From positions 528,115-560,114 of the forward strand of contig JBFWUX010000003.1 of the NCBI GenBank assembly GCA_050247055.1: a stretch of 32,000 nt of DNA, in the 5' to 3' direction. Below the pieces are notes generated by a model, which was not told the DNA's origin, searched no databases, and saw nothing but the letters and a program-made list of their open reading frames with translations. The position numbers and the translations under genes were made by a program. Below are positions 4,469-28,700 of this stretch, one piece after another. Position 1 is the stretch's first letter. Every line of letters starts with the position of its first letter. The DNA is from Dehalococcoidia bacterium. GTDB taxonomy: Bacteria; Chloroflexota; Dehalococcoidia; Tepidiformales; Tepidiformaceae.

Positions 4469-5746
4469 CTACACCGGCACCTCGAACGACGACCCGGTGA
4501 GGTACTCGGCGGAAAGCCTGCCACCGGCGGCGTTCTTGAGGTCTTCCACGAGTGCTTCGACCTTCTTCATGTGCGCCGCGCCGTCGCTGCGTTCGGAGAC
4601 GGAACTGTGGCAGTTGAACCAGAACTTGAATGGCTTGGAATCTGCACCGGCCAGGCGGCGCTCGACGATGAGCCGCACAACCGCGAGGTCCGGGTTTTCA
4701 TGCTGCCCGTTGCCACAGAAGATGTACTGGTCCGCGGTGATTGCATCGCAGAACGCCTGGTCGATGTTGTTCTCCGATCCGTGGTGCTGGACCTTCAAGA
4801 CATCGACGTGCAGCTTGCCGTTCGCATCGAACTTCCCACGCTTTTCCAGCCCTTTGACGATGTCGTCGCCATGCCCGTCGCCGGTGAGCAAAACTCGCTT
4901 CTTGCCCTCGGTCGCGAGCAACATGATCGAAGCAAGATTCGGCGTCGTGACCTTCGAGCGCATCCCGAGCGCGTTTCCGAGTGCCACGAAGTGGCTCGCC
5001 GGCCACGCAAGTTCGCTCGTGCTCAGCATCGCCTCGTCTTCCTCAGCCTGGTGTTCGATACCGGCGATTGCCGAACCGTGCGAATCAAGCCAGGTGTTCC
5101 ACTCGGACCGCAGCTTCGTGAGGTCCGCCCCGAAAGGTCCAATCACGTCGAGCTTCGTCGAACCGAGCGACACCGCCTTCTCTACGCCTTCGACGGTGAC
5201 AAGCTTGCCGCCGACCTGCTTGTTGAGCGGGATGTTCAACTGCCTGCCGCCGATTCGACGCGACACCTTGATCGCTTCCGGGATGCTCTGGGTCAGTTCT
5301 GCCTGCGCCGCACCCAGTGCCTGCAACTCCGGCGCATCCGCGGAGGAAAGCAACGATGCGGAAGCCGCCAGCGCGCTCTCAATCGCGCCCGAGTTCTTGC
5401 CGACTTGCTCGTGGAAGGCGTTGTGCCAGATGCTGCCAACCTGAGGTGGGCGCGGGTTTTCCGGCGGCGGATGGTTCGGGTTGCCGTTGGCCAACTGGTA
5501 CTCGTGAACCCGCCAGGCAGCCTCGTCGTCGAGCAGCTGGAGAACACCGGAGATGTGGTCCTGGTCGATGTGGGAAACGTAGATCAGGTCCAGCTTCTTC
5601 TTTGCCTGTCGCAGCGCACCAAGCTCCGGCGCCACGTGCTTCGAATACGATGCGCTCATCCCCCCGTCGATGAGCATGCGGCGGTTCGTCCGGCTCGTAA
5701 GCAGCAGGCAATCGCCCTTCTCCGAACGGAACACCTGGAGCTTCAT
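4469..5746 (-). CDS. MBL-fold metallo-hydrolase, ComEC/Rec2-like subtype, with a ~220-aa helical insertion
   Basis: Motifs 'RRMLIDGG', 'YVSHIDQDHISG' (an HxHxDH variant), 'VLLTGDGHGDD', 'LKVQHHGSENN' and 'FCGNGQHENPDLAVV'. Its ATG overlaps the upstream S8 stop (ATGA at 5743-5746). No signal peptide. Confidence 0.85.
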   Translation of the reverse strand: MKLQVFRSEKGDCLLLTSRTNRRMLIDGGMSASYSKHVAPELGALRQAKKKLDLIYVSHIDQDHISGVLQLLDDEAAWRVHEYQLANGNPNHPPPENPRPPQVGSIWHNAFHEQVGKNSGAIESALAASASLLSSADAPELQALGAAQAELTQSIPEAIKVSRRIGGRQLNIPLNKQVGGKLVTVEGVEKAVSLGSTKLDVIGPFGADLTKLRSEWNTWLDSHGSAIAGIEHQAEEDEAMLSTSELAWPASHFVALGNALGMRSKVTTPNLASIMLLATEGKKRVLLTGDGHGDDIVKGLEKRGKFDANGKLHVDVLKVQHHGSENNIDQAFCDAITADQYIFCGNGQHENPDLAVVRLIVERRLAGADSKPFKFWFNCHSSVSERSDGAAHMKKVEALVEDLKNAAGGRLSAEYLTGSSFEVPV

Positions 5747-7788
5747 CCGGTGCGGTCCTTCCGCTTAAACAGCATGTCCACTTCGTTCAGGCATGCCTTC
5801 GGGTCTATCTGACCGTAGCCGGCATCGTTCACCCAGTTGAAGTCGGCGCCCGGCAACGGGCGCGCCGTCCGCCGGATGATGCCTTCAACCTGGGCGGCGG
5901 TCAGACGCGGCTGCTGACCTAGCATCAAACCGACCACACCGGTGACATGCGGGCTCGCCATGCTCGTGCCGCTCATCGAAACCCATTGCTTATCCGGCTC
6001 CCGGCTGAATCCGCGTGCCGCAACGATGTTCGTCCCGGGCGCGGCTACGTCGGGCTTCGACCGACCGTCGCGGGTCGGTCCCTGGCTGCTGGTGATGTTG
6101 ATTCGGGCACGTTCCGAATCGAGATTGCCGACTGAGATGATGCGCTGCCCACACGCCAGCGAGGTCACCGACGACGAGTCGACGTTCGAACGCTCGGAGA
6201 AGAATGAAGGAAAGCGCCACGCCTCGCGGTTCCCCATGACGCCCATGCGCACCGGGTCATCGCGCTCGATCCACGCGTGGAATCTCCCATCGCGAACCTC
6301 CACGCCGTGAAGCCGCACGGTCCACTCGCCCGAGCGCACGCCAACGATGCCCTGCGTGCTGAGGAGCGGGCTGAGAAAGATGGAGATGTAGTTCGAGCCG
6401 TTTGCGGGGTGATAGAGCTCGTTGTAGATGCTAAGAAACGACCCGTCCTTGAGTTGCCGGTTCTCGATGAACTCGCGCGGATGAATGACCTCCGTCCAGT
6501 CCTCGCCTGGCGGTCGTACGGAGACTGCGAAACGGTCCTGCGGGCCATACCAGATCTCAAGCTCGTTTTCGGAGATGTCCATAAGGCCGTTGCCCGCGAC
6601 CACCCAGTCGATGTCTGTTACGAGGTCGCGCGCCGGGATTCTGCCGCTAGTGTGAATCCTTCCGACGATGAAGCCGATGTCATCGGGGGTTTCCGCGCGC
6701 TCCTGTCCGGCGTTGCCCGCGGCCACACAGACGGCCCGCCCCGGCGTTGTCATGGCAGCATCGATCCAGCGCGAAACGGGCGCGCTGCCATCGTGCGCAT
6801 GGCCGTTGGTCCCGAGGCTCACGTTGATGGCGACCGGAAGCTTCAGCTCCTGGCCCAGCTCGAGCAGGTAGTCCACCGCGTGTGCGAGCCGCGTCGAGTC
6901 ATAGAAGCTCTTGCGCCGGTCCTCGTCGCCCGGAGCAAGCCCAATGAGTACCCCCGCAAGCACCGCATTCCGGCACACCCCGAGGTTGCCCGCCGCGATG
7001 CTCGCCACGTGCGTCCCATGCGATCCCTCCGCTGTCTGCGACTGGCGCTCGACCTCCCACGCGCTCACGCCGAGCCCGGGGCCCGCCTTGATCGCCGCAT
7101 TGAGGTGCTCGCGCCGGAATTCGGCGCCGTAGGCATGCGCCGGGTTCCGTGCCGGCGCCGGCCGCGCGTTGCCGGCCTGATCCCAGATAGCCGCCCAGCG
7201 CGTGTTTCCGTCCGCGTCGAGAAAGTCCGAATGCGAGAAGTCAAAGCCTTCGACATCGATGATGCCGATCAGCACATTCGGCGTTTTTGTTGCCGGCCCA
7301 AATCGTCGCTCGGCCGGAGACGGCGAGCGGACGCTCGCTGCCCCCACTTTCGGCGCAGGCTGCTTCAACGATTCGCCAACTTCCACCCACGATACGTCCG
7401 GGTGGTCGAGCAGCCTCGGAATCTCTCGCGGGTTCACAGTGGCGATGACGAGGTCCCGCCGCTGCGCATCCTCTTCCGAAACGAAATCGCCGGGCCGGGC
7501 TGCCGGGTCTTCGAGTTGGACAAACACGTTGACCGAAACCTGGTGCGGCAATTCCGGTAGTGATCCGCGCTTCACCGATTTCGGCATCTGCTTCCGTTCG
7601 ATCGGGACGGCTCCTGCCCCTCGACACTGACCGGTCTCTCTTAGCAGTTCGTCACTCTCCACGCGCAGCGCCGCCGAGAGTTCGGCGCGCACCGCGTTCA
7701 CCTGGTCGCTTCCGTTCGCGATCATCCGCAGCTTTGGTTGCAACTTGTCGAGGTTGCCGCGGAACAGTTCTTCACTCTTCGATGCCAT
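5743..7788 (-). CDS. Intracellular S8 (subtilisin-like) serine peptidase with an N-terminal propeptide-like region and a large beta-rich insertion. The maximal ORF extends to a TTG at 7998.
   Basis: Catalytic motifs: Asp in 'LIGIIDVEGFD', His in 'GSHGTHVASIAAGN', oxyanion Asn in 'VAAGNAG', Ser in 'SGTSMASPHVTG'. ATG 7788 is preceded by GGCGGAGGA (a strong SD). TTG 7998 has no SD and would overlap the divergent MFS gene by 56 bp. There is no signal peptide or TM segment with either start. Confidence 0.85.
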   Translation of the reverse strand: MASKSEELFRGNLDKLQPKLRMIANGSDQVNAVRAELSAALRVESDELLRETGQCRGAGAVPIERKQMPKSVKRGSLPELPHQVSVNVFVQLEDPAARPGDFVSEEDAQRRDLVIATVNPREIPRLLDHPDVSWVEVGESLKQPAPKVGAASVRSPSPAERRFGPATKTPNVLIGIIDVEGFDFSHSDFLDADGNTRWAAIWDQAGNARPAPARNPAHAYGAEFRREHLNAAIKAGPGLGVSAWEVERQSQTAEGSHGTHVASIAAGNLGVCRNAVLAGVLIGLAPGDEDRRKSFYDSTRLAHAVDYLLELGQELKLPVAINVSLGTNGHAHDGSAPVSRWIDAAMTTPGRAVCVAAGNAGQERAETPDDIGFIVGRIHTSGRIPARDLVTDIDWVVAGNGLMDISENELEIWYGPQDRFAVSVRPPGEDWTEVIHPREFIENRQLKDGSFLSIYNELYHPANGSNYISIFLSPLLSTQGIVGVRSGEWTVRLHGVEVRDGRFHAWIERDDPVRMGVMGNREAWRFPSFFSERSNVDSSSVTSLACGQRIISVGNLDSERARINITSSQGPTRDGRSKPDVAAPGTNIVAARGFSREPDKQWVSMSGTSMASPHVTGVVGLMLGQQPRLTAAQVEGIIRRTARPLPGADFNWVNDAGYGQIDPKACLNEVDMLFKRKDRTG

Positions 7789-7942
7789 CGCATCCTCCGC
7801 CACGGGATAGTAAACACGCTTCTCGGCGGCATTATCGCCGGTCGCGTCAACGGCCGGAGTTGGCTCCCAGGGTGTGGCTTGAGCGTAGAATCCAGCCGGT
7901 GACTCGACCTGCAGATGTTTCGCTTCGTGACGGCGCTCGTCG

Positions 7943-9421
7943 ATGAGTGCTCCGGCGGCACCGGCTTTGCCAGCAGCGGAAGAGCGAGAGTACGACAACT
8001 CTCACAAGTGGCTCGCATTCAGCGCCATCGGCGTTTCCTTCGTGACGATGGTCATGAGTCAGTCGATGGTTTTCGTGGCGCTCTCCGCCATCGCGGACGA
8101 CTTCGGTATCACGCTGCGGGCGGTTTCCTGGGTGGTCATCGCTCAGGCGCTCACCATCAGCGCATTGATGATGCCGATGGGCCGCCTCGCCGACATGGTC
8201 GGCTGGAAACGAATACACCTGCTCGGCCTTGCGCTCTTCGCAATCGGCTGCATCTTCATTGCCGTCTCGCCGGTTTTCTGGATCCTGATTGCCGCCCGAG
8301 TGGTAATGGCCGCCGGGAACGCGATGGGCCAGTCCGTTGGCACAGCCATGGTGGTCTCGGTCTTCCCGCCCGAGGAGCGCGGCATGGCCATCGGCAGCCA
8401 GACCAGTGCCGTCGCCATCGGCGGCGTCTCCGGACCGATCGTTGGCGGACTGGTTCTTCAGGTCCTCCCGTGGGAGGCGCTCTTCCTCATCCTTGTGGTG
8501 CCGATCGTCATCGCGTTCATTGCGGGCTACCTCATCCTCGATGAGAACCGGATGCGCAAGGACCGCGGCAAGGAACGCCTCCCGTTCGACTGGGGCGGGG
8601 CGATCATCTCATCCATCGCCATCAGCCTGCTCGTCATAACCATCAACAATCCGTTGCGATTCGGTTGGACCTCGCCCGCCCAGGCCGGCAGCCTGCTGGC
8701 CGTTGTCCTTCTCGGCGCGGTCTTCGTCTATTGGGAACTCCGCTACGCGAACCCGATGCTCGAACTCCGCCTCTTTCGCGACCGTGTCTTCAGCCTCGCG
8801 GTCCTCACCCGCATGTTCGGGTTCATGGGTACCACTGCCACCCTCTTCATGATGCCGATCTACCTCATCAGCTTTCGCGGAATCGCCGAGGGCGCGGCGG
8901 GCGGCGTCCTCTTCCTCACTTCCCTCGGCATGGGCATTTCGGCCCAGGCCGCCGGCCGCCTCTCCGATCGTTTCGGCCCCCGCCGTTTCACGATGCTTGG
9001 GCTCACGATGGTGCTCATCACCGCGGTGCCAATGTCGTTCCTCGGTCACGACACACCCATCCCGCTCGTCATGTGCCTGTTGCTTGTCGCCGGGCTTGGG
9101 TCCGGGTTCTTCAATGTTCCGAACAACAGCATGATCCTCGGAGCCTCGCCCGCGTCCGCCCTGGGTGTGGTCGCCGCGCTCACGAACCTCACCCGAAACG
9201 TTGGCAACGTTTTCGGCCAGGCGATCGCCTCCGGCGTCGTCGTGGCCGTGATGGTCGCCAAGGGCTTTGACATCCCCCTGGGCGACGTCGGCGACAATCC
9301 CGAGGCAGGCGGTGCTTTCCTCGATGGCTGGCGGATCGCCTTCACCCTTGTCTCCGCCTACGCCGCAATAGGCCTCGCCTGCACGTTCGGCACCAAAGAC
9401 CCAAAGCCAGTTCCGGCCTAG
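7943..9421 (+). CDS. MFS transporter, DHA2 (EmrB/QacA-like, ~14 TMS) drug:H+ antiporter family
   Basis: Multiple hydrophobic helices. MFS motif A-like 'GRLADMVGWKR' and motif C-like 'AIGGVSGPIVGG'. At 492 aa, the length fits the 14-TMS subfamily. Confidence 0.85.
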   Translation: MSAPAAPALPAAEEREYDNSHKWLAFSAIGVSFVTMVMSQSMVFVALSAIADDFGITLRAVSWVVIAQALTISALMMPMGRLADMVGWKRIHLLGLALFAIGCIFIAVSPVFWILIAARVVMAAGNAMGQSVGTAMVVSVFPPEERGMAIGSQTSAVAIGGVSGPIVGGLVLQVLPWEALFLILVVPIVIAFIAGYLILDENRMRKDRGKERLPFDWGGAIISSIAISLLVITINNPLRFGWTSPAQAGSLLAVVLLGAVFVYWELRYANPMLELRLFRDRVFSLAVLTRMFGFMGTTATLFMMPIYLISFRGIAEGAAGGVLFLTSLGMGISAQAAGRLSDRFGPRRFTMLGLTMVLITAVPMSFLGHDTPIPLVMCLLLVAGLGSGFFNVPNNSMILGASPASALGVVAALTNLTRNVGNVFGQAIASGVVVAVMVAKGFDIPLGDVGDNPEAGGAFLDGWRIAFTLVSAYAAIGLACTFGTKDPKPVPA

Positions 9422-17204: not shown

Positions 17205-17529
17205 ATCGAGCCTGGCAAATGCTATCGCTGCGACGATTCGCTCTCGCGGCTGGGAGGGTCGCAACATTCGCATTCGCGTCGCCGGCGGACACACCGATCT
17301 GGACGCGTTCGAACGCTCGCTGATTACGCACCTTCGAATAAGCGCCCCCGCGCTCGATTCGTGCGCTTTTACTGTGGTGCATGAGCCGCTCTTCCTGACT
17401 TGCAGCAGGTGCGCCTCAACGTTCAGGGGGCTCCCCTCCGCTTCATGTCCCATGTGCGGAGGCCCACCCCTACCCACGCTCGAGCCCGAGGGCATCGAAC
17501 TCGAAGTAGATGACGGGGAGTCCGGTTAA
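17197..17529 (+). CDS. hypA: Hydrogenase nickel-insertion protein HypA
   Basis: N-terminal MHE motif, and a zinc site of 'CSRC' ... 'CPMC'. 110 aa. RBS is CAGGAG. Confidence 0.85.
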   Translation: MHESSLANAIAATIRSRGWEGRNIRIRVAGGHTDLDAFERSLITHLRISAPALDSCAFTVVHEPLFLTCSRCASTFRGLPSASCPMCGGPPLPTLEPEGIELEVDDGESG

Positions 17530-17792
17530 TGTGCCTCACGACTCCCGCCACCGTCGTTCGCACCGTCGAACGTGGAGGAATCTGCGTTGTCACCGTGCTC
17601 TGGCCCGGAGAAGGCGAGCGCGACTGCATCACCTATGTCGACGGTGTGCAACCTGGCGAGCGTGTACGCGTTGCAGGCGGCGCCATCATCGAACGCGTCG
17701 CGGACCACGTCGATGACCAGCAGTCACTTACGGACTTGCTTATCGAGGCCTTCGATCAGACTCACGCAAATGGAGGAGGAACCACATCATGA
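17529..17792 (+). CDS. hypC: HypC/HupF family hydrogenase assembly chaperone
   Basis: Starts with MCL (the essential N-terminal Cys). 'PGERVRVAGGAIIERV' sits at the position of the HypC 'GDWVLVHVGFA' segment. TAATG overlap with hypA. Confidence 0.8.
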   Translation: MCLTTPATVVRTVERGGICVVTVLWPGEGERDCITYVDGVQPGERVRVAGGAIIERVADHVDDQQSLTDLLIEAFDQTHANGGGTTS

Positions 17793-18748
17793 CAACACTC
17801 ACCCCGGGACGGACGAGAACAGTACCGCAATGGTGGCGGGTGCCAACGACGATCCGTTGGGGCATCGGGTTGGCCTTCGCTGCCGCCATAGTCAGTGGGT
17901 TCTCCGTCTGGGTGAACTCCTATGCCGTGAAAGAAGTTCGAGACCCCGCCGTCTTCACCACGGCTAAGAACCTCACCGTGGGGTTGGTGCTCGTCGCCGC
18001 CCTCTTGAGTTCGTCCAGCAAACAAAGCCCACGTCCGCGCACGAAGACCCATTGGACAATGCTGCTGTCCCTCGGAATCGTCGGAGGAAGCGTTCCCTTC
18101 GTCCTCTTCTTCGAAGGCCTTTCTCAATCGGGACCTGGCAACGCTGCCTTCATTCAAAAGACGCTCTTCATCTGGGTTGCGATTCTCGCCGTTCCCTTGC
18201 TCGGCGAACGCGTTGGACGGTGGCAGGTCGCAGCGCTCGGATTGCTACTTTGCGCACAACTCCTAATCGGCCGACCGAGCTCGTGGGCACCTGGCCGCGG
18301 AGAACTGATGGTTCTCGCTGCAACCGCGTTTTGGACCGTCGAAACCGTCATCGCCCGGCGGTTGCTTCCCGAAGTCGGCGTACTCCTCGGCGCCACGACT
18401 CGCATGGGCCTGGGAGGAATCGCATTGTTCGCATACCTCACCGTCCAGGGAAAACTGGGCGCCTTCTTCGGACTTGATGCCGAACAGTGGCGCTGGGTCG
18501 TTTCCACCAGCGCAATCCTCCTGGTCTATGTGACCGTCTGGTACGCGGCGCTCAGACGGGCCCCTGCCACCGTTGTCACCAGCATCCTCACCCTCGGCGC
18601 CCCCATCACGGCGCTGCTCGCCACCTGGTCAGGCAAGCCCTCGCCGAGCGGCGAACAGATGCTCGGCTACGCGATTCTGGCAGTGGGATTGGCCGTTGTG
18701 GCCGTGGCAACCAGACCCGCGCACACCAGCCAGGCCGCCCTCGCATGA
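17789..18748 (+). CDS. EamA/DMT superfamily transporter (~10 TMS)
   Basis: Two repeated 5-helix halves of hydrophobic segments. RBS is GGAGGAGGA. ATGA overlap with hypC. Confidence 0.8.
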   Translation: MTTLTPGRTRTVPQWWRVPTTIRWGIGLAFAAAIVSGFSVWVNSYAVKEVRDPAVFTTAKNLTVGLVLVAALLSSSSKQSPRPRTKTHWTMLLSLGIVGGSVPFVLFFEGLSQSGPGNAAFIQKTLFIWVAILAVPLLGERVGRWQVAALGLLLCAQLLIGRPSSWAPGRGELMVLAATAFWTVETVIARRLLPEVGVLLGATTRMGLGGIALFAYLTVQGKLGAFFGLDAEQWRWVVSTSAILLVYVTVWYAALRRAPATVVTSILTLGAPITALLATWSGKPSPSGEQMLGYAILAVGLAVVAVATRPAHTSQAALA

Positions 18749-19485
18749 GTAACGACGGGCCCCTGCTCTTCGCTCGCTACGCGTTCAAGCCGAACGCACT
18801 GGGCTTTTGCGGAGGCGACGACGACCGGGCACTGTTTTCCTACGCGACGGAAAACACGATTGATCCGGGTCTCACGCAGCTCGAACAGCAATTCGAAGGC
18901 GCATACCCATACCTTCGATTGATAGCGCACGCGAATGGTCTTGCCGATCCCTTCGACCGCCGCGTTGTCGAGGCCTACTGGGTGGGCAACGAGTTGCTCG
19001 ACCGGATCGACATGGGATTACTTCACGGCTCGCTCGAGGAACGGTTCCGGGCCAGGACAACCAGACCAATGTGGGCCTGGCTGGCGTCGAAGGTCCCTGC
19101 CGGCGCACGACCCCACCACAGCTTCCACGTCTTCGAGGTCTATCCGCGCGCGGGAATGATGAAGTCCGGCGCCGTGGAGCATGCATTCGAGACCATGGAG
19201 CAGTGCCGCATCCGCTGGGGACGAGTCACCGACGTCCTGGGCCCAGATCTCATCGTCGAAGTCGAACCGCTTCGAGTGGTCGATGGCAACCTCACCCTTT
19301 GCCCGGCGGAAAGAGAAACCGTCAGGCGATGGGTGGACGGCAAAGGATTCGTCGATGACATCCAGCCGGGTCAGTGGGTTTCAATTCACTGGGGCTGGGC
19401 GTGCGACCGGCTTTCGTTGGCCCAGCGGCGACGGCTCGAGCGCTACACCAGGTGGCACATCACCCTCTGCAACCAAACGCTGTAA
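18745..19485 (+). CDS. Hypothetical protein with a C-terminal HypC-like OB-fold segment
   Basis: ATG 18745 overlaps the EamA stop (ATGA). The C-terminal 'EQCRIRWGRVTDVLGPDLIVEV ... QPGQWVSIHWGWACDRLSLAQ' parallels HypC 'MCIGVPGQI...A.V ... GQWVLVHVGFA' (recalled from memory). The N-terminal ~150 aa are unassigned. The longer 332-aa ORF was rejected. Confidence 0.7.
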   Translation: MSNDGPLLFARYAFKPNALGFCGGDDDRALFSYATENTIDPGLTQLEQQFEGAYPYLRLIAHANGLADPFDRRVVEAYWVGNELLDRIDMGLLHGSLEERFRARTTRPMWAWLASKVPAGARPHHSFHVFEVYPRAGMMKSGAVEHAFETMEQCRIRWGRVTDVLGPDLIVEVEPLRVVDGNLTLCPAERETVRRWVDGKGFVDDIQPGQWVSIHWGWACDRLSLAQRRRLERYTRWHITLCNQTL

Positions 19486-19489
19486 AGCC

Positions 19490-19564
19490 TGGTACCCCCG
19501 GCAGGAATCGAACCTGCGCACATGGTTTAGGAAACCACTGCTCTATCCGCTGAGCTACGGGGGC
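19490..19564 (-). tRNA. tRNA-Arg (anticodon CCT), CCA-encoded
   Basis: Manual fold of the reverse complement: acceptor GCCCCCG/CGGGGGT, D arm GCTC/GAGC, anticodon stem GTGGT/ACCAT with loop TTCCTAA, T arm GCAGG-TTCGATT-CCTGC, then ACCA. Confidence 0.9.
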
Positions 19565-19763
19565 ACGAAAAAGATGCTAGACTGAATCTAGATACAGCAG
19601 AGTACTGTTACGCCACGGATTTGCAACGGTCCGCACAGCGTTCATACAGCTGATAATTACGCGGAGGGCTAGCCGCCTGGCAAACTCGTCTTCGACCAAG
19701 AATTCTTCCCTTGCAAACACCTGGTCAGTCTACCAGACGCTGTTCACCGATCACCTCGAATCG

Positions 19764-20624
19764 GTGAACGCAGCCCCGGCGACCATCCGGACCTATCGTT
19801 TCGCCGTCGAACAGCTCGGGGCGTTCCTGCGGGAGCAGGGGCTACCAACAGACCCAAGGAAGGTGAAGCGCGAGCACCTCTCAGCCTGGATGCTTCATCT
19901 TCAGCGGCCACCCGACGCTGGCGGTCGGGGACTGGCCGCTCAGACCGCGCTCCAGCGCTTTCAAAGCACGCGTCAGTTCTTCAAGTTCCTGGAGGAGGCC
20001 GGCGATATCAAGGAGTCGCCGATGCTTAGGCTCAAACCGCCACGTGTCCCGGAAAAGTTGGTGCCGGTCATTGCCGACGACGACCTCAGGAAACTCTTCA
20101 AAGTGGTGTCGGGCACGGACTTCGAATCTCGCCGCGACAAGGCCATCATCTCGATTTTCGTCGACACCGGGATCCGCGTGTCGGAAATGGCCGGGCTCAT
20201 GCTCAAGGACCTCGACGTGGAGCAACGCGAGATCGAGGTCCTCGGAAAGGGGCGCCGTCCCCGGATCCTCCGCATCGTCAGAGAGACGCGCACCGACCTC
20301 TTGCGCTACCTCCAGGCGCGGAGCCTGCATCCGCACACGGACTCACCGGTTCTCTGGCTGGGAAAGCGTGAGCGGCTGACCGACAACGGCATCCGTCAGC
20401 TGGTCCGCCGACGCCAGGAACAGGCCGGCATCCCGAGGATTCATCCGCACGTCTTCAGGCACACCTTCGCCCACAACTACCTGAAGGGTGGAGGTTCTGA
20501 AGGCGACCTCGTGCGGATCACGGGGTGGAAGGACCGCCAGATGCTCGACCGATATGGGGCGAGCGTAGCCTCGGAGCGCGCCCGGGATGCGCATGACACC
20601 TACTCGCCCCGCAGAGGTTTGTAG
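19764..20624 (+). CDS. Tyrosine recombinase/integrase (XerC/XerD-like); the 5' end is uncertain
   Basis: Catalytic residues in context: 'DTGIRVSE' (Arg), 'GKGRR' (Lys), 'HVFRHTFA' (His-x-x-Arg), 'ITGWKD' and 'LDRYGAS' (Tyr). The frame is open upstream back to 19581. Confidence 0.85.
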   Translation: MNAAPATIRTYRFAVEQLGAFLREQGLPTDPRKVKREHLSAWMLHLQRPPDAGGRGLAAQTALQRFQSTRQFFKFLEEAGDIKESPMLRLKPPRVPEKLVPVIADDDLRKLFKVVSGTDFESRRDKAIISIFVDTGIRVSEMAGLMLKDLDVEQREIEVLGKGRRPRILRIVRETRTDLLRYLQARSLHPHTDSPVLWLGKRERLTDNGIRQLVRRRQEQAGIPRIHPHVFRHTFAHNYLKGGGSEGDLVRITGWKDRQMLDRYGASVASERARDAHDTYSPRRGL

Positions 20625-20761
20625 TTCGTCTCCACAAACGAACCTTCTGAGTTGCGGGCGAACCGTCCGCGACCGTTTGCGGACCGACGCGACAGGAGCC
20701 GTCGCGGCTGCGATCCACGATGTATCGACACTCGTGTCGGCCTAGTTGGCAGGAGAACTGG

Positions 20762-22549
20762 ATGAGCGATCTCAATGCAACCATCTGCACCGTCCCCACC
20801 TGGCCGGACTGGGTGTCCGCTAGCGCCACGCGTAACTGGTGCCTCAAGAACACCCTCCAGGATTGGTTGGCCCTCTATGGCGAATCCGCGGGCTTTGAGT
20901 CGGACCCCGAACCGTTGGTTGGGGCGGACTTCCGCTCCTTCATCTTCGAGAAGGGCCGGCAATTCGAGGCGCGCGTCGTGGAGTTGCTGTCGCAACGAAC
21001 TGAGGTCTTTCGGCCTCATGATCTCGCCGAGCCCTCTCGTTCCATAGAGGCTCGGGACGCGACGGTCGATGCAATGCGGCGCGGAGCGTCCGTGATTGCG
21101 CAGGGTGTGCTTTGGGAATCGGAATCGCAGACCTACGGCACACCCGACCTGCTGATCCGCAGCGATGTGCTCGAGTCGCTATTTCCGGATGCGATCCGGA
21201 AGGAAGAAGTTCTGATTGGGGCGCCAGCGCTCGGTCTCGACGCCTACCACTATCGAGTCGTCGATATCAAATTCACCACCCTCCAACTCGACCGCAATGG
21301 GCACGCTGCACGGGGCCACATGCCGTATCTCGTCCAGGTGTCCATCTATAACAACGCCCTGGGCAAAACCCAGGGCTTTCTCCCACCGCGGTCTTACCTC
21401 CTTGGCCGCAGTTGGTCGGGTGCAGGAAACACAGAAGGACGAGGATGCTTCGACCGTCTGGCACCAATCCCCACGAACCTCAGCTGGGACGACGGCACCC
21501 TGACTGAGTTCGTGACGTCGGCAACGTCATGGGTACGCCGTGTTCGTGCGGAAGGCGCGACCTGGCACCCTTCCGACGGACCGAGAGTACCAGAGTTGCG
21601 ACCGAATCCGGCAGAGGCCGACTATCCTTGGAGGAGCGCGACGAGGCTCATCGCCGAGCAGAATCGTGACCCGATCCTCGCCTGGCAGGTCGGGTGCGCG
21701 GCGCGCGATCTCGCTACCGGCCGCGGCGTTTCGGACTGGACAGACCCCAGGTTCAACGCGCGGATAGCAGGACTGGACGGCAGCCGCGCAGCCCGGCTCG
21801 ACCTGATCCTCGACCATAACCGCGCCGCGGATGGGCCAGTGGTTATCCCGGAGCGCATTCAATCCGAGCGCGAGCAGTGGATTCAGCCTGCGGAGGTAGA
21901 ATTCTACGTCGACTTCGAGACGGTTTCCGACGTCAATGATGACTTTGTCGGCCTGCCGGCCCGCGGTGGCCAGGCGATGATCTTCATGATCGGCTGCGGA
22001 CACTTAGAGGGTGGCGAGTGGACATACTCCTGCTTCACAGTGGACCGCCTCGATCCCCAAAGCGAGGTTGAAGTCATCGAGGCGTGGCTCGAACACATGC
22101 GAGTCGTCCAAGATCGGCTCGCACCGAATCTTGCCAAGCCCCTTGTCTTCCACTGGTCGCCGGCAGAGTCGAGCGGTCTGTCCACCGGCCTCAAATCGGC
22201 CAGAGCCAGGCACCCGGAACGTTCTCGCCATTGGGAAGAGCCGAACTGGTACGACTTCCTGAGCCGCGTCGTTCGTGCCGAGCCCGTAGTCGTCCGCGGG
22301 CCGATGGGCTTCGGACTCAAAGCTTTTGCCGGGTCTCTGCGTAGGCATGGACTGATTCAATCCGAATGGCCCGACAACGTATCGGACGGCCTTGGGGCGA
22401 TGGTTTGTGCGTGGACTGCCTACGCCGAGAGCGGTCGATGTGGTCGTCGAGTGTCGGAGCACGAACTCATGAAGTCGGTGCAGCAATACAACGAGGTCGA
22501 TTGCCGAGTGATGATGGAGGCAATTCGATATTTGCGAAGATGCCACTAG
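20762..22549 (+). CDS. RecB-like PD-(D/E)XK nuclease fused to a C-terminal RNase H-like (DEDD-type) domain, TM0106-family architecture
   Basis: 'GTPDLLIRSD' ... 'YRVVDIKFT' gives the PD...(D/E)xK motif. The C-terminal 'FYVDFET', 'VFHWSPAES' and 'YNEVDCRVMMEAI' give RNase H-like acidic motifs. ATG 20762 follows AGGAGA. Confidence 0.8.
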   Translation: MSDLNATICTVPTWPDWVSASATRNWCLKNTLQDWLALYGESAGFESDPEPLVGADFRSFIFEKGRQFEARVVELLSQRTEVFRPHDLAEPSRSIEARDATVDAMRRGASVIAQGVLWESESQTYGTPDLLIRSDVLESLFPDAIRKEEVLIGAPALGLDAYHYRVVDIKFTTLQLDRNGHAARGHMPYLVQVSIYNNALGKTQGFLPPRSYLLGRSWSGAGNTEGRGCFDRLAPIPTNLSWDDGTLTEFVTSATSWVRRVRAEGATWHPSDGPRVPELRPNPAEADYPWRSATRLIAEQNRDPILAWQVGCAARDLATGRGVSDWTDPRFNARIAGLDGSRAARLDLILDHNRAADGPVVIPERIQSEREQWIQPAEVEFYVDFETVSDVNDDFVGLPARGGQAMIFMIGCGHLEGGEWTYSCFTVDRLDPQSEVEVIEAWLEHMRVVQDRLAPNLAKPLVFHWSPAESSGLSTGLKSARARHPERSRHWEEPNWYDFLSRVVRAEPVVVRGPMGFGLKAFAGSLRRHGLIQSEWPDNVSDGLGAMVCAWTAYAESGRCGRRVSEHELMKSVQQYNEVDCRVMMEAIRYLRRCH

Positions 22550-22578: not shown

Positions 22579-23256
22579 CTAAATTCCCGGTGCCAACCTC
22601 GTTCTTGTCGATCTTTCGTTATCCAAGACGCCTTGCAGCAGCATCGCCGGTATTTCTCGTTCAAAGGCCTCGGGCGTAATTTCGCCGTCCGGTCGAGCCC
22701 AGCGGAAGATTGAATGAACGGCGTTAATCAACGTGAGCCCGACCAGGCGTGGGTTCCTGCGACTGAACTCTCCGGACTCCATGCCACGGGCGACAATGCT
22801 CGTGAAAAGGTGGTCGTATTCCCTGTCGAGGGAGCGCAGGTACAGACGGTCCTCTTCCGGGATAGAAGCGGGTCGCCGAATTCGAATCGCCGCGTAGTCC
22901 ATCGGCTGCCAGCCTGCCCTCACCAGGTCCGCCAAAGCCTTGTGTAGCTGGCGGGCGGGTGCCTCGTCACTAGACGCGATTGCGTTCAGGCGATCCAGTG
23001 CGGCTCGATTTACCTGGTCGACCATCGCAACGTAGATCTCAGCCTTGCTTCGAAACTGGTAGTAAATGACACCCTTGGTGCAACCCATCTCGTCGGCGAC
23101 GTCATCCAACGTCGTCGCGTCATAGCCTCGTCGGGCGACCACCGACGCCATGGCAAGGAGGATCTGCTGTCTCTGAGCAAGCCGTTTCGCCGGGTTGAGG
23201 ACGCGATTGCCACGCAGGCCAGTCTGATGATGTGTGCGGACTTTGCCTCCGGGCAT
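22579..23256 (-). CDS. TetR/AcrR family transcriptional regulator
   Basis: The HTH is 'GYDATTLDDVADEMGCTKGVIYYQFRSKAEIY'. ATG 23256 is preceded by GGGAGG. A TTG at 23325 is the maximal ORF start. Confidence 0.85.
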   Translation of the reverse strand: MPGGKVRTHHQTGLRGNRVLNPAKRLAQRQQILLAMASVVARRGYDATTLDDVADEMGCTKGVIYYQFRSKAEIYVAMVDQVNRAALDRLNAIASSDEAPARQLHKALADLVRAGWQPMDYAAIRIRRPASIPEEDRLYLRSLDREYDHLFTSIVARGMESGEFSRRNPRLVGLTLINAVHSIFRWARPDGEITPEAFEREIPAMLLQGVLDNERSTRTRLAPGI

Positions 23257-23321
23257 CCAACCTCCCGACCGTTCGTTCTGGACTATTTTATCCCGCTCAA
23301 CTTGATTCACGCTAGGAAATC

Positions 23322-24347
23322 TCAAGCTGAATGAGACTGTCCGGAGTGCGCGCCAACCAGGTCTGGATGGCGTTTTGGGAATTCCTGGCTGAGACGGTAG
23401 GAATTAGCCAGGTAGCGCGGGTAGTTCTTGCGAAGGTGGTAGTTCAGCCGCCCATCGAGCTCGTTGAACACCATCTGGAACGAGGCATAGAGCCCCTGCG
23501 GGTTGCGTCGCAGCTTGCCCCGGTCGAGCGAGCTTAGCAGGTCGTCTGCGGCTTCTTCGGCCTCCATGCCTTTGTCGTGGCGGCGCTTCGCTTCCTCCAT
23601 CAGCCAGTGACAGGAGTCAAGCTGGTCTCGGACATCCGCCAGGTCCATCACGGGGCCGTGACCGGCAACGTACGCCTGGGCCTCCCACGAGGCTGCTTCT
23701 TCGAGGACGGCGATCACGTTCCCGAGTCCCGGGTACTGCAGGCTCTGGTAAGTACCCGCGCCGGTGATATCGCCGTAGTGCACCACCCCCACGTCCGGAA
23801 GATAAACCACCGTGTCGCTGGCGGTGTGACAGGGTCCGGCCTCGATGAGCTGGACCCGCTGGTTCCCGAACTTGAATTCGGTCCTGCCATTGAAGCTCTC
23901 GCTTGGCACCACCGGTTCCAGCCCGGAGAAGTCGAAGAAGTCCTGGAGGTTCCGCTCCATGGCCAGCTTGGCGTCACCGGTAAGCGACTCGATCTGTCCG
24001 AGCCATGCCTTCGGCGGCAGGTTCGCCATATAGTCTTCGACCGTCTCCGTGCAGATGATGCGCGTCTCGGTGAAGTTGTCCATGCAGGCGCCGTGGACAT
24101 GGTCGACGTGCCAGTGGGTCAATGCGAGAACGTCGATGTTCCCGGCATCCGGGTCGGCAGCCGCGAACGAGTCGAGCATGCGCCGTGTCATCGGGATGTC
24201 GCTCGTCGTGTCGATGAGCAGCGTCTCGCCTTCGGAGACCACGAGGGCCATGTTGTTGAATCCCCAGCCCCCGACCTGCGTATAGACATAAGCCCGGTCG
24301 CCGATTCGGCTGACGTGATTTGGCTTGAAATTGTCCCAATCTGCCAT
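23322..24347 (-). CDS. MBL-fold metallo-hydrolase
   Basis: 'LALTHWHVDHVHG' (HxHxDH) with downstream 'CHTASD' and 'AGHGP'. ATG 24347 is preceded by GAGGAG. Confidence 0.8.
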   Translation of the reverse strand: MADWDNFKPNHVSRIGDRAYVYTQVGGWGFNNMALVVSEGETLLIDTTSDIPMTRRMLDSFAAADPDAGNIDVLALTHWHVDHVHGACMDNFTETRIICTETVEDYMANLPPKAWLGQIESLTGDAKLAMERNLQDFFDFSGLEPVVPSESFNGRTEFKFGNQRVQLIEAGPCHTASDTVVYLPDVGVVHYGDITGAGTYQSLQYPGLGNVIAVLEEAASWEAQAYVAGHGPVMDLADVRDQLDSCHWLMEEAKRRHDKGMEAEEAADDLLSSLDRGKLRRNPQGLYASFQMVFNELDGRLNYHLRKNYPRYLANSYRLSQEFPKRHPDLVGAHSGQSHSA

Positions 24348-24381
24348 GGTGACGTCTCCTCGGTGTTGAATGGTGCTGTCC

Positions 24382-24939
24382 CTACTTTGTTGGTGGAGGG
24401 AACCCGGCACGGCCGGCCGGCAACTCCATCGCATTCGCGAAGAGCGTGCAGGCCAGCATCAGGTAGAACCCGACAAGGGCGGTGATATCGGTCAGACCTC
24501 GTTCGCCAAACTCGGCGCGAACGGCCTCGAGCGTGGCTTGCGAGACCCGGTGAACGTTCACCATCTCGCGGGTGAACTGTGCGACTGTTCGGTACCGCGA
24601 CGGGAACGCTTCGACATCTCCGCGCACCCCGATTGCGTCCACCAGCTCTTGTGGCACGCCCTCGCGTATCGCGGTCTCTGCGTGCGCGGCCCAGACAAAC
24701 TCACAGTCAAACTCGCGTGCCGCCGTGATGACGGCCAGCTCGAAGATGTCGTTGGAGAGTCCGGATTCGAACCTCAGGTAGGCGCCGAGGTTCGCGGCAT
24801 GGCGCGCGGTCTCCGGGGCGTGCATGAGGAGCCCCACCGGCGTCGTCACCGCGCCGCGGTTCTCCATGATCGCGTCGAAGACAGGCTGCACCTCGGGCGA
24901 AACGAGGTCTCGTTTGTTCAGGACTGGCAATCTAGGCAT
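24382..24939 (-). CDS. Carboxymuconolactone decarboxylase (CMD) / AhpD-like family protein
   Basis: 'ELAVITAAREFDCEFVWAAHAETA' is typical of the CMD-family helical core. 185 aa. Confidence 0.8.
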   Translation of the reverse strand: MPRLPVLNKRDLVSPEVQPVFDAIMENRGAVTTPVGLLMHAPETARHAANLGAYLRFESGLSNDIFELAVITAAREFDCEFVWAAHAETAIREGVPQELVDAIGVRGDVEAFPSRYRTVAQFTREMVNVHRVSQATLEAVRAEFGERGLTDITALVGFYLMLACTLFANAMELPAGRAGFPPPTK

Positions 24940-24948
24940 TTGGCCGAC

Positions 24949-25743
24949 TCACCATGTGCCGCGTGCGACCATGCCACCGTCCACGACCAGGTCATGTGCG
25001 TTAATGTATCCCGCTTCTTCACTGGCAAGGTAGAGAACCGCCTGTGCGCAGTCCTCGACAGTTCCTGCCCGGCCGACTGGTGTTGCATGCCCGAGATTCT
25101 CCGTGAGCTTCCTCATCTTCGCCCGTTCATGTTCAGGGTCGAGTCCCCTCGCCTGCGCCGAGCCTCCGTAGAAGATTGGAGTCGCTACTGCTCCAGGGGA
25201 AATCGCGTTGACGGTGATGCCGTCGGCGGCAAGTCGGATTGCCGCAGTCTTCGTAACGTGAGTTACCGCTGCCTTCGCTGCGCCGTACAGCCAGTCGCCA
25301 CTCGAAACGCGGATTCCATTAACGCTCGAGTTGTTGATGATTCTGCCCCACCTCTGTTGGCGCATGATTGGCACAGCGTGCTTGATTCCAAACAAAACGC
25401 TTCCGAGCAGGAGATCCATTCCGTAGTGGAACTGCTCGGCGGTCACGGACTCCATGGAGCCTGGGGTGCTGCCGCCGGCGTTGTTGAAAAGGATGTCGAC
25501 TCGACCGAAGTTGTCCCGCGCGTCACCAATGGTCCTGGCAATGTCACCCTCTCGAGTCACGTCCGCCGTGACGAACCGCACTCTCTGTCCCAGCGAGTTT
25601 GCGATCGCCTTTCCGACTTCGGTTCCCCGTCCGCAGAAGACTACGCTGGCACCCTCGTCGGCGAACAGCCGAACAGTGGCTTCCCCAATTCCGCTCGTAC
25701 CTCCCGTAATGACCGCAACCTTGCCTTCGAGCTTCGCCATCAT
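24949..25743 (-). CDS. SDR family oxidoreductase
   Basis: 'KVAVITGGTSGIGEA' (TGxxxGxG), 'NNAG', and a 'YGAAK' catalytic Tyr-x3-Lys. Confidence 0.9.
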   Translation of the reverse strand: MMAKLEGKVAVITGGTSGIGEATVRLFADEGASVVFCGRGTEVGKAIANSLGQRVRFVTADVTREGDIARTIGDARDNFGRVDILFNNAGGSTPGSMESVTAEQFHYGMDLLLGSVLFGIKHAVPIMRQQRWGRIINNSSVNGIRVSSGDWLYGAAKAAVTHVTKTAAIRLAADGITVNAISPGAVATPIFYGGSAQARGLDPEHERAKMRKLTENLGHATPVGRAGTVEDCAQAVLYLASEEAGYINAHDLVVDGGMVARGTW

Positions 25744-25786
25744 GTCCTCCTCGTAGTGATCGTGTCGTCCGTCGCCCCAGGTTCAG

Positions 25787-28700
25787 TCACCAGGTATCGA
25801 CCCAGCCGTGCTTCTTGCCTGCGCGAGGAATCGGCGGAGGGACAGAATCAAGTCCCATCGCCAGCCAGTTTCTCGTTTCCGCCGGGTCAATTACGTCGTC
25901 TACTTCCATCACTGTGGCGGCGTTCAACGCTCGTGACCATGCATAGGCTTCGGCAACGTACTTCTCATAGAGCGCTTTGCGTTCGGGGATGTCGGTGATC
26001 GCCGCTAGTTCAGCGCGGCGGCCGAGTTTGACGGAACCTTCCAGTCCCATGCCCGCGAACTCGCCGGTCGGCCAGGAGATGGAGAAGAAGGTCTCATCGA
26101 AGCTCCCGGTCGACATCGCTAGGGCTCCGAGACCGTACGACTTTCGAAGCACGACGACGAAGTACGGCACCGTGATGTTGGCTCCAGCAACGTACATTCG
26201 CCCACAGTGTCTAATCAGGGCCGTCTTTTCAGCTTCTGGACCGACCATGTTGCCCGGGGTATCGATCAGGGACACTATCGGGATGTCAAACGCGTCGCAC
26301 AGCTGCATAAATCGCGCGGCCTTATCTGCGCCGTCGGAATCGATGGCTCCGCCCGTCGGAGAGTTGGAGTTGTTTGCGACAACTCCCACCGGACGCCCTT
26401 CCACTCGAATAAACGATGTGACCATGGAGAGCCCAAACTTCGGGCGAAGTTCAAGCACAGAACCGACGTCCGCGAGTGTCTCAATCACCTTCCGAATGTC
26501 ATAAACCGCGCGGCGATTCTCGGGAACGATGTGACGAAGAATCCGTTGGTCGCCGGCTTCCCATTGGGTCAGCCGACCCTGGAAGTAAGAAAGATACTTC
26601 TTCGCCATCGCCGTGGCTTCGGCTTCGTCTTCAACAAGGATATCGATGACGCCATTCGGTTGCTGAATGCTGACCGGCCCGACTTCGCTTGCTGCATAGG
26701 CACCGAGGCCGCCACCCTCGATGACGGCCGGACCGCCTATGCCCAGACTCGAGTCTTTCGTTGCGATGATGACATCGCATGCGCCGAGCAGCACGACGTT
26801 GCCCGCGAAACAGTAGCCGGAGTTCACGCCGACGATAGGCACCAAACCGGACAGCTTGCCGAGTTCTCGCCACGTCCGCACACTGAGCCCGCCAACGCTT
26901 CCAGCAGCCTGACGACTTGAGTTGACGTTGGCACCACCGCCCGTGCGCCCGCCGCCACCCTCCGTGTACAGCACCACCGGTAGTCGATACTTCTCCGCAA
27001 CACCGAACATGCGGTCCTGTTTCTGGTGATTCTTCCCGCCCTGCGTACCAGCGAGGACGGTGTAGTCGTACGACATCACGACACAACGTGCGTTTTCGCG
27101 ACCGACAAGATCGCCGTTCACCCGAGCCACTCCCATTACCATGCCATCCGCGGTCGTTTTCGTGACCCGTTGTTCGAGCTCTTCAATGGTGTCTTGTCTG
27201 AACCGCGTCGCTGTGACAATTGGGCCGTATTCGTAGAACGATCCGGGATCAACGAGGTCCGCTATGTTTTCTCGTACCGTGCGTTTGCCGGCATCGTGCC
27301 GCTTGGCCCTGGCCTCAATGCGGACATCGTCCTTCGTGAGGCTATGGAAGTGCAGAACCTCGGCGATATCGGGACGAATGCTGTCGAGGTCGGGAGCGGC
27401 TTCGGCGTTGTATTCCCCGTCAACGTCCCGTGGCTCCAAGAACATGATCGGAGTGTCTTCATAAATTGTGTCACCGAGCTCAAGCGTGATCTCCCGAACC
27501 ATTCCTGACACCTCAGCGCGAATGATGTGCTCCATCTTCAACGCTTCCATGACCGCGACGGGCTGGCCCTTTTGAACGGAGTCACCCAGGGAGACGTGCA
27601 GCGCGATAATCATGCCCTGCAACGGAGCTGCCACGGCTACGGTGCCTTCGGGCCCGTGTACGTGAGGCACAGCGATGTTCACCTCAGGTGCCGAAATTGC
27701 AGAAGCACCCTTTAGCGAGAGAACTGCGAGAGGATCGTTCGGGTCCACGCGCGTGCCCGCCTTCCGGACTTCGCGCTCCTGCGGTTCGAAATACCGGGGG
27801 CGAGCACCTTCCGCCGCAAGAATCTCAGCAGCGTGGTCTTCTACGTACCGCGTGTAGATCGCGCTATCAGCTAGCGGTGCCAGGCTCAAGAGTCCGGAGA
27901 GGAATCCTGCATTGTGACGGACCCCGGCCAGTTTGAACTCCGAAAGCGCTCGCCGAGCCTTACGAACAGTTGCATCGAGATTGTCGGCATGCACGATCAG
28001 CTTCGCCAGGAGCGAATCGTAGCGAGAGCTGGTCGCGTATCCCGCGTAGCCGAATCCGTCCACACGAATGCCCGGGCCCGCGGGCGGCTCGTAAGCGGTC
28101 AGCAGCCCACCACCAGGCCGGCTCGCCCCGTCCGACATCATCGTTTCAAGGTTGATTCGAGTCTGCAGGGCAAAGCCTCTCGGAGGCGGCACCTGGTCTT
28201 GAAGCAGCCCGAGTTCGGCGACCGTACTCCCGCTCGCAATCTTGAGCTGAATGGCGACGAGATCCAGTCCCGTAACCTCTTCCGTGACTGTGTGCTCCAC
28301 CTGAAGCCGCGCGTTGGCTTCGATGAAGACGAATCGGTCGTTAGCCCCCGGACGAGCATCCACGAGAAATTCGATGGTGCCCACGCCTCGATACTCGGCC
28401 ATCGACGCGATTTCAGTCGCCGCCTTGAGCATCCGGTCGCGCATGGGCGCTGAAATACCGAACGCCGGGGCAATCTCGATCAGCTTCTGACGTTGGCGCT
28501 GAAGGCTGCACTCGCGGTCCCACAAGTGTGAAACGGCACCTGAACCGTCGCCCACGATCTGAACTTCTACGTGTCGTGCGCGCGGGAGCAACTCCTCGAT
28601 ATAGAGTTCTCCAGACCCAAAAGACGCCTGCGCCTCTGATGTCGCCCGATCAAAAGACTCACGCAGGTCACCAACCTCGTGTACGGGCCGCATGCCACGA

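Follow-up and report, generated by a model that had tools for sequence, protein, structure and literature searches.

The window analysed here, a 32,000-nucleotide stretch from a Dehalococcoidia bacterium (contig JBFWUX010000003.1, positions 528,115 to 560,114), carries on its minus strand a subtilisin-like protease of family S8 followed by a ComEC-type metallo-β-lactamase (MBL)-fold protein, referred to below as S8 and MBL. We favour, with moderate confidence, the view that the two make up a protease/pro-nuclease cassette, in which S8 would cut loops of MBL and free a deoxyribonuclease (DNase) for a defence of the abortive-infection type. Work published in 2025 established MBL pro-nucleases activated by a protease as an effector that recurs in bacterial immunity, and the branches studied are those linked to trypsin-like or caspase proteases (PMC12799240; PMC12642450). 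The proposal is drawn from several features in combination, among them the homology of MBL, its two-insertion anatomy, the obligate pairing with S8, and the intact catalytic residues of both proteins.

The pair is a strict, translationally coupled two-gene cassette. According to the open reading frame (ORF) list of the window, the S8 gene (5743..7788, minus strand) is upstream and the MBL gene (4469..5746, minus strand), which encodes a putative pro-nuclease of 425 amino acids, is downstream. The S8 stop overlaps the MBL start in the ATGA at 5743..5746 (minus strand), which was read directly and agrees with the preliminary description of this locus. An alignment of MBL homologues was used for a scan of one genome per GTDB species, in which 309 of ~185,600 species genomes were recovered, and the best 80 of the 309 loci were kept. 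The distribution is rare and patchy over more than ten phyla, including Chloroflexota, Acidobacteriota, Actinomycetota, Planctomycetota, Verrucomicrobiota, Bacteroidota, Alpha-, Beta- and Deltaproteobacteria, Gemmatimonadota, Armatimonadota, Rokubacteria and others. In 79 of the 80 loci, the gene immediately before MBL on the same strand encodes a full-length S8 homologue (47-96% identity), and the lone exception begins 7 nt into its contig; all 79 informative loci are thus paired, and the question raised earlier, whether the two genes keep company across unrelated genomes, is answered in the affirmative. Stop and start overlap by 4 nt in 51 of these 79 loci and by 1 nt in 13, and lie within 26 nt of each other in the rest. 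The pairwise identities of S8 and MBL correlate across genomes (Pearson 0.78, Mantel p = 0.001), and the cassette is spread at 45-60% identity, with a median of 52% for S8 across phyla. A third conserved gene is absent: the commonest cluster of flanking ORFs in an all-against-all clustering occurs in 8 of the 80 loci, and a three-gene system or conserved sensor was rejected because no neighbour exceeds that count.

Both genes are under purifying selection and evolve faster than the flanking housekeeping genes. Compared with the related locus L001, dN/dS is 0.036 for S8 and 0.074 for MBL, as against 0.005 for the adjacent acyl-CoA dehydrogenase (ACAD) gene. The corresponding identities are 99.5% for ACAD, 96% for the major facilitator superfamily (MFS) transporter, 95.6% for S8 and 90.4% for MBL. 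In the comparison with locus L050 (Candidatus Amarobacter glycogenicus), they are 90% for ACAD and 67% for MBL. As a separate observation, MBL diverges about twice as fast as S8, and far faster than the housekeeping genes at its flanks, within the syntenic block shared by the window, L001, L002 and L050. In L050 (7963-10001), S8 is split into two frames near 8680 while MBL is intact at the 67% identity given above; the split points to a frameshift pseudogene or else to an error of the long-read assembly. Candidate second copies of MBL or S8 near the pair were rejected, as they proved to be a genuine ComEC in L041 and unrelated weak matches. This ComEC (6054-7841, with Competence and Lactamase_B domains), in an Acidobacteriota genome, stands directly upstream of the pair; it is a single case, and the adjacency is probably coincidental.

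By sequence comparison, MBL is a predicted member of the HamM/Avs1a/LmuA-H/CanC pro-nuclease superfamily. Pfam Lactamase_B recognises its N-terminal part only (5.5e-8), and PADLOC models match it over the whole length, with LmuA at 1.5e-47, Avs1a at 1.5e-34 and the DRT-associated MBL (RTasMBL) at 4e-32. The NCBIfam model of Avs1a (NF041809) is matched at 1.4e-42, with 146 bits against a cutoff of 420 bits. MBL does not qualify as an Avs1a of AVAST type 1, as its partner is S8 and a STAND gene is lacking nearby. The family profile aligns in hhalign with PflHamM (99.6% probability, E 3e-24, 30% identity over 305 columns), the sequence of which was taken from Table S1 of Tuck et al. (PMC12799240). 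The closest solved structure, by profile and by fold, is the ComEC MBL nuclease domain (9ic4, E 1.6e-8), and this is the only related structure detectable; no solved structure of a gated MBL could be found in the PDB by sequence or profile. Among the curated NCBIfam families, no metabolic MBL family is matched above cutoff. MBL hence groups with nucleases and not with a metabolic hydrolase family, the assignment that would have spoken against the earlier proposal.

The four metal-site motifs listed in the preliminary description are present on the minus strand between 4691 and 5572, and their coordinates were verified: HIDQDH (5555-5572), TGDGHGDD (4862-4885), VQHHGS (4775-4792) and GNGQHENP (4691-4714). 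The residues H59, D61, D63, H64, D290, H321 and H322, including the metal ligands, are invariant in 121 MBL homologues. H322 aligns with H289 of HamM, the mutation of which abolishes defence (PMC12799240).

In the AlphaFold2 (AF2) model of MBL (pLDDT 82.5, pTM 0.84), the MBL core is predicted with confidence and precisely two segments are predicted poorly, ~aa 112-165 and 206-271, both of which coincide with variable, indel-rich regions of the family alignment. The first candidate gating insertion is encoded at 5252..5413 (minus strand; pLDDT 52-70) and the second at 4934..5131 (minus strand; pLDDT <50 at 237-268, indel-rich at 243-257); both also show in the HamM alignment. The model thereby amends the earlier account of one helical insertion of ~220 amino acids. 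It consists of two insertions with core MBL strands between them. This anatomy recalls HamM and Avs1a, gated pro-nucleases whose ComEC-like active site is obstructed by a pair of disordered insertions (Tuck et al., Science 2025, PMC12799240). Their partner protease, a trypsin-like domain that is fused to HamA or Avs1b, cuts after a conserved Ile in each loop and generates an indiscriminate DNase (PMC12799240). Similarly, the MBLs linked to Avs2 and Avs4 are Zn-dependent double-stranded DNA nucleases with two cleavage sites (Evans et al., bioRxiv 2025, PMC12642450). The DNases HamM, Avs1a, VcMBL and CanC are active only once the partner protease has cut two loops (PMC12799240; PMC12642450).

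When the HamM cleavage sites are transferred by hhalign, I118 falls near L141/Q142 and I218 on M240/L241, both inside the two insertions. Position 141 is Leu in 89, Val in 16 and Ile in 7 of the 121 homologues (hydrophobic in 112 of 121) and belongs to a variable-length loop, 135-150. Position 241 is Leu, Met, Phe or Ile in 121 of 121 and is followed by Gly or Ser, with a conserved D237 before it (D237-x3-[LMFI]241-[GS]242). Hydrophobic residues are typical P1 residues of subtilases. Candidate sites of cleavage by S8 are probably next to L141 and L241.

S8 is matched by Pfam Peptidase_S8 with an E-value of 1.2e-30. Together with the Lactamase_B and PADLOC matches of MBL, this confirms the family assignments made at first from the letters alone. 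As had been described, its catalytic set is complete: the motifs IIDVEG (D178, 7255-7257), GSHGTHVAS (H260, 7009-7011), AAGNAG (N359, 6712-6714) and SGTSMASPH (S609, 5962-5964) were located at verified coordinates over 5962..7257 (minus strand), and the triad D178/H260/S609 and the oxyanion residue N359 are invariant in 120 homologues. The AF2 model (pLDDT 85.4, pTM 0.91) superposes only on the clostridial proteins CspA, CspC and CspB, with Foldseek E-values of 8.6e-35 to 9e-31 and target-normalised TM-scores of 0.77-0.81. Among the solved structures searched with Foldseek, the next-best folds are ordinary pro-subtilisins at ~1e-11, and phmmer agrees on the Csp relatives (6.7e-23). S8 stays below the NCBIfam cutoffs for the Csp families, with 127 vs 1250 bits for CspBA and 90 vs 675 bits for CspC.

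The model suggests a Csp-type architecture for S8, which comprises a prodomain, a subtilase core and a central jelly-roll (aa ~379-525). The jelly-roll is modelled as an all-beta insertion between Asn359 and Ser609 (aa 379-525, 6214..6654, minus strand); the beta-rich insertion of ~230 amino acids reported earlier is therefore real, and it corresponds to the jelly-roll domain typical of Csp-type subtilases. In the N-terminal region, aa 84-142 (7363..7539, minus strand) do model as a prodomain-like unit with beta-alpha-beta secondary structure. This assignment follows from the fold, given that the whole model superposes on prodomain-bearing Csp structures. Pfam finds neither I9 nor CspB_prodomain in aa 1-171, and an identity as either prodomain by sequence was rejected on this null. 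Of the I9-like region proposed in the preliminary description, the prodomain-like unit accordingly stands in the model and the I9 label does not.

The first 83 residues of S8 (7540..7788, minus strand; pLDDT 70-93, no Pfam hit) are a family-specific extension, conserved in 120 homologues with the motif QPKLRMIANGS..VN.VRAE, and are a candidate regulatory or docking element. Distant Csp-like S8 relatives among 1.84 billion representatives match the family profile only from position ~86-110 on. The longer ones carry unrelated VanY/M15, patatin or OmpA extensions, and P0343, the one protein of this sensor-fused type that was checked, has no MBL neighbour; such sensor-fused relatives appear to be other lineages and were set aside as a guide to the pair. 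Two of the distant proteins, P0376 and P0380, are giants of 1577-1897 aa that combine an N-terminal Csp-like S8 domain with patatin phospholipase and VanY/M15 D-Ala-D-Ala carboxypeptidase domains; nothing in such a multi-effector architecture connects it to MBL nucleases.

The start of S8 is most likely the ATG at 7788, to judge from the sequence context. It is preceded at a distance of 5 nt by a Shine-Dalgarno-like GGAGG (7794..7798, minus strand), read directly as GCGGAGGATGCGATG. The resulting protein of 681 amino acids falls in the range of ~120 close homologues (676-694 aa) and is annotated with the same length in a public record (GCA_050245895.1 JBFWXA010000002.1). The ORF can be extended to the TTG at 7998, the upper limit adopted in the preliminary description. 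This start is unlikely because it would overlap the divergent MFS transporter gene, which begins at 7943 or 7967 on the plus strand; with a start at 7788, the divergent S8/MFS intergenic region measures ~155-180 bp. Neither S8, with either start, nor MBL contains a signal-peptide-like or transmembrane-like stretch (maximum Kyte-Doolittle values over 19 residues of 1.58 and 0.90, respectively), and by hydropathy the same holds for 68 homologue pairs. Both proteins are predicted to be cytoplasmic, in line with the absence of an export signal noted earlier.

The features described above can be arranged into the following scheme. MBL would be made as an inactive zymogen, in which the two flexible insertions mask a ComEC-like di-metal site. 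The cytoplasmic Csp-type S8, with its intact triad, retained prodomain, jelly-roll and N-terminal extension, would be held latent until a cue of infection or stress activates it. S8 would then cut MBL in one or both insertions, probably beside L141 and L241, and the freed, non-specific, metal-dependent DNase would destroy phage and host DNA, with abortive infection or growth arrest as the outcome, much as HamMAB, AVAST and CanABC act. The signal would be read by S8 itself, through the jelly-roll, the N-terminal extension or release of the prodomain, or by an unlinked factor. As no sensor gene or domain is conserved, S8 is the likeliest receiver. The Csp proteins offer a precedent: CspB is the activator of the zymogen pro-SleC, and CspC and CspA, which are pseudoproteases, serve as sensors of germinants or ligands; this gives the Csp fold a history as a signal-controlled zymogen activator. 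A specific form of this scheme, in which S8 is both sensor and executioner, the jelly-roll and/or the N-terminal extension binding a phage product or small molecule so that the prodomain is released and MBL cut, is possible and is put forward tentatively. The cytoplasmic protease gating a degradative MBL effector, as first proposed for this locus, thus gains support from homology and from the 2025 literature; what we infer from these comparisons is that S8 cleaves MBL, where it does so, the DNase activity of MBL, its trigger and a role against phages.

The genomic context of the pair is mixed. On the side of defence and mobility, the pair is carried by 30 plasmids of Rhizobium, Sinorhizobium and Agrobacterium, 24 of which are predicted to be conjugative. 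On the conjugative S. meliloti plasmid pRRI128_5 (L088, 1874-23163), the pair resides among hypothetical genes between IS66 and IS21 insertion sequences (IS), and a homologue of the Tiamat protein TmtA (E 4.5e-102) is found 4-5 kb downstream of it. This homologue, for which the annotation gives two ORFs (17443-18504 and 18494-20773), may be split or disrupted. In Edaphobacter modestus (L085, 5213-19858), the pair is located amid many small unannotated ORFs, in a region that also holds endonuclease VII, an Xre/MbcA/ParS-type antitoxin, PDC-S52-like and SRAP genes and two tyrosine integrases and looks like a genomic island. In ~8 Acidobacteriota species, the pair is flanked by yebC and ruvC in the same orientation (L009, 6798-11951; also L008, L011, L013, L020, L024 and L025), and the flanks in L009 were identified by comparison with 4f3q for YebC (1.9e-73) and 1hjr for RuvC (3e-35). 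The yebC-ruvC(AB) recombination operon is usually contiguous. The placement could mean that the pair is co-regulated with DNA repair, or that this is an insertion site particular to the lineage.

A number of observations weigh against an immune pro-nuclease. The 271 nearest and second-nearest neighbour ORFs in the 80 genomes are overwhelmingly housekeeping genes (RuvC, YebC, MFS, patatin, ACAD), and each PADLOC family is matched by 1-2 of them, raw counts that come without a background rate. The loci L082, L086 and L087 and that on R. leguminosarum pRle248d have a metabolic appearance. At least four Chloroflexota genomes of the lineage of the window retain the gene order S8-MBL-ACAD-p114-PGDH, and the cassette of the window is an ordinary, vertically inherited member of its family. 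An island setting is seen in some genomes, on the plasmid pRRI128_5 and in E. modestus, and housekeeping neighbours prevail in most of them, the window included. Relatives of the pair are absent from the viral contigs of IMG/VR, and phage records yielded one weak, partial hit; a phage origin was rejected on these grounds. No sensor of the STAND, Hachiman or reverse-transcriptase kind is fused or adjacent to the pair, unlike in the trypsin- and caspase-linked systems. The 146 bits of MBL, far below the 420-bit cutoff, make it a relative of Avs1a and not an equivalog. The proposed cleavage positions sit in a low-confidence, weakly aligned part of one alignment, and the isoleucines used by the trypsin-type partners are not conserved among the 121 S8-linked MBLs. 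Finally, literature searches turned up no experiment on any S8-linked member.

Part of these observations would suit the same protease-activated DNase in a non-immune role, such as degradation of self-DNA, death or dormancy, or DNA turnover and repair, under a starvation or DNA-damage signal. The housekeeping neighbourhoods, the vertical and stable inheritance beside ACAD in the four Chloroflexota genomes, the position inside the yebC-ruvC operon of the Acidobacteriota, the want of a sensor for phage proteins, and the strong purifying selection along with the median S8 identity across phyla all agree with such a role. It has to be set against the rarity and patchiness of the family (309 of ~185,600 species), its conjugative plasmids and islands flanked by IS elements or integrases, and the fact that every characterised MBL relative is an anti-phage effector. 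In a comparison of empty and occupied sites, 80 metagenome loci with ACAD homologues (61-89% identity) lack the pair, but they also lack the other flanking genes and so provide no clean insertion or deletion comparison. Because the context is mixed and a clean empty site is wanting, the non-immune role stays a serious rival, although we think it unlikely. The plasmid-borne loci bring to mind yet another role, that of a toxin/antitoxin-like addiction or plasmid-stabilisation module, in which the nuclease would be unleashed on loss of the cassette or of a regulator and would serve the carrier element. The tight coupling of the two genes, the 24 conjugative plasmids among 30, the IS elements around the pair on pRRI128_5 and the Xre/MbcA-type antitoxin gene in E. 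modestus fit this idea. Most occurrences are nevertheless chromosomal with no mobile-element genes adjacent, neither product is small, labile or antitoxin-like, and the protease would be an activator rather than an inhibitor; we consider the module improbable.

The remaining explanations depart further from a gated DNase. S8 might mature a peptide or protein and MBL act as a phosphodiesterase or small-molecule hydrolase, both serving one metabolic or signalling pathway. The catalysis of MBL folds is versatile, Pfam sees in this protein a generic Lactamase_B domain over the N-terminal part only, and the neighbours of the pair in the window are CoA-transferase, ACAD and hydrogenase genes; yet the best relatives by sequence and fold are the nucleases HamM, Avs1a, LmuA-H and ComEC, the 80 loci have no conserved metabolic neighbour in common, and no curated metabolic MBL family scores above cutoff, so that we give non-DNA substrates little credence. 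Export of S8 to the cell surface or the medium by a cryptic route, with the adjacency of MBL as incidental operon packing, would be in keeping with the general habit of the family, since most characterised subtilases are secreted and the Csp proteins act outside the spore core. It is highly improbable here: S8 and its 68 homologues are devoid of signal peptides and transmembrane segments, the synteny and the overlap of start and stop are kept across phyla, and S8 and MBL co-vary. The protease/pro-nuclease cassette with a defensive role is thus the reading that we retain.

Other features of the window are situated at a distance from the pair. A tRNA-Arg(CCT) gene (19490-19564, minus strand) is followed by a gene of the phage-integrase family (19764-20621, plus strand) and by an ORF of 609 aa (20720-22546, plus strand) with no Pfam or PADLOC match. 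The GC content falls from ~0.63 to ~0.59-0.60 beyond 22 kb. The tRNA-Arg region may be an integrated element, which lies ~12 kb from the S8-MBL pair and is not adjacent to it. Further along, a second, unrelated MBL-fold gene (23325-24434, minus strand; Lactamase_B 2.5e-14, no PADLOC hit) adjoins a TetR regulator gene (22582-23325, minus strand), and an ORF of 542 aa (24370-25995, plus strand) has no family match.

The S8 branch is of interest for its compactness: the studied branches rely on an attached sensor or accessory protein, and the S8 pair is without a recognisable one. Its hosts belong to more than ten phyla and are mostly soil and sediment bacteria, and the pair also travels on rhizobial conjugative plasmids. 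If the proposed mechanism holds, the pair would provide a simple system for studying how a cytoplasmic subtilase is kept latent and switched on, and the design of Csp-type zymogen-activating subtilases would reach beyond spore germination. If S8 acts as sensor and executioner at once, the pair would represent a minimal, two-gene, ATPase-free protease-nuclease immunity and an evolutionary link between germination proteases and immune zymogen activation. Should its role lie outside immunity, the pair would exemplify a regulated self-DNase that serves some other physiological purpose.

Comparison with the known systems places the pair closest to a clade of subtilase-associated MBLs, which is recorded as 'Clade 3' by Evans et al. 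(PMC12642450) and as the 'subtilase' track in the legend of Fig. S2 of Tuck et al. (PMC12799240). Both papers place the clade on trees, and neither of them studies this branch (PMC12799240; PMC12642450). The preliminary description could not assign the pair to any named system. The published description of the clade, a HamM-like MBL nuclease adjoining an S8 subtilisin-like protease, fits the arrangement at the window locus, and the pair can be placed there on that basis. One difference is that Evans et al. mention 'distinct sensor associations', whereas the family of the window has neither a sensor gene nor a sensor domain.

The HamM-HamA-HamB and AVAST systems (Avs1a/Avs1b, Avs2-trypsin-MBL) share with the pair a homologous MBL, two insertions at the gating positions, an adjacent protease gene and active-site residues that are conserved, the equivalent of HamM H289 among them. 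In contrast to the stand-alone Csp-type S8 here, the protease of those systems is trypsin-like, forms one domain of a fusion with HamA or a STAND ATPase, and is activated by oligomerisation. Their nuclease gene precedes the protease gene, whereas it follows it in the S8 pair, and cleavage after a conserved Ile has no counterpart in the S8-linked MBLs, which lack that residue. More generally, the protease of the characterised systems is joined to a Hachiman, STAND, Lamassu or reverse-transcriptase module or depends on CanB. CanABC (canu) resembles the S8 pair in combining a non-trypsin protease with a homologous gated MBL, in having the nuclease gene downstream of the protease gene, and in not being embedded in a previously named sensor system. 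It differs in its protease, a MALT1-like caspase that has an Ig-like fold and requires CanB, and in its variable multi-gene loci, often in defence islands, as opposed to a strict two-gene cassette.

On the protease side, the Csp subtilases (4I0W, 6MW4, 9PR8 and 9PR9) likewise have a retained prodomain, a subtilase core and a jelly-roll insertion. Identity to S8 is ~20%, and S8 possesses the additional N-terminal extension of ~83 aa. The hosts of the S8 pair are not spore formers, the presumed substrate is an MBL nuclease and not a cortex lytic enzyme, and S8 keeps an intact triad, unlike the pseudoproteases CspC and CspA. On the nuclease side, the C-terminal MBL domain of ComEC/Rec2 has the same motif pattern, HxDxDH...D...HHGS, and is the best solved structural relative. 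ComEC/Rec2 serves DNA uptake at the membrane and also has Competence and OB domains, and its MBL domain spans ~266 aa without the two insertions; the MBL of the window is predicted to be soluble and is ~160 aa longer. Taken as a kind, the protease-gated MBL pro-nuclease is already known, and the S8-MBL pairing itself is on record in the clade description and figure legend cited above (PMC12642450; PMC12799240). What may be new is the sensor-less two-gene layout, the Csp-type architecture of the protease, its family-specific N-terminal extension and the predicted cleavage positions of the Leu type.

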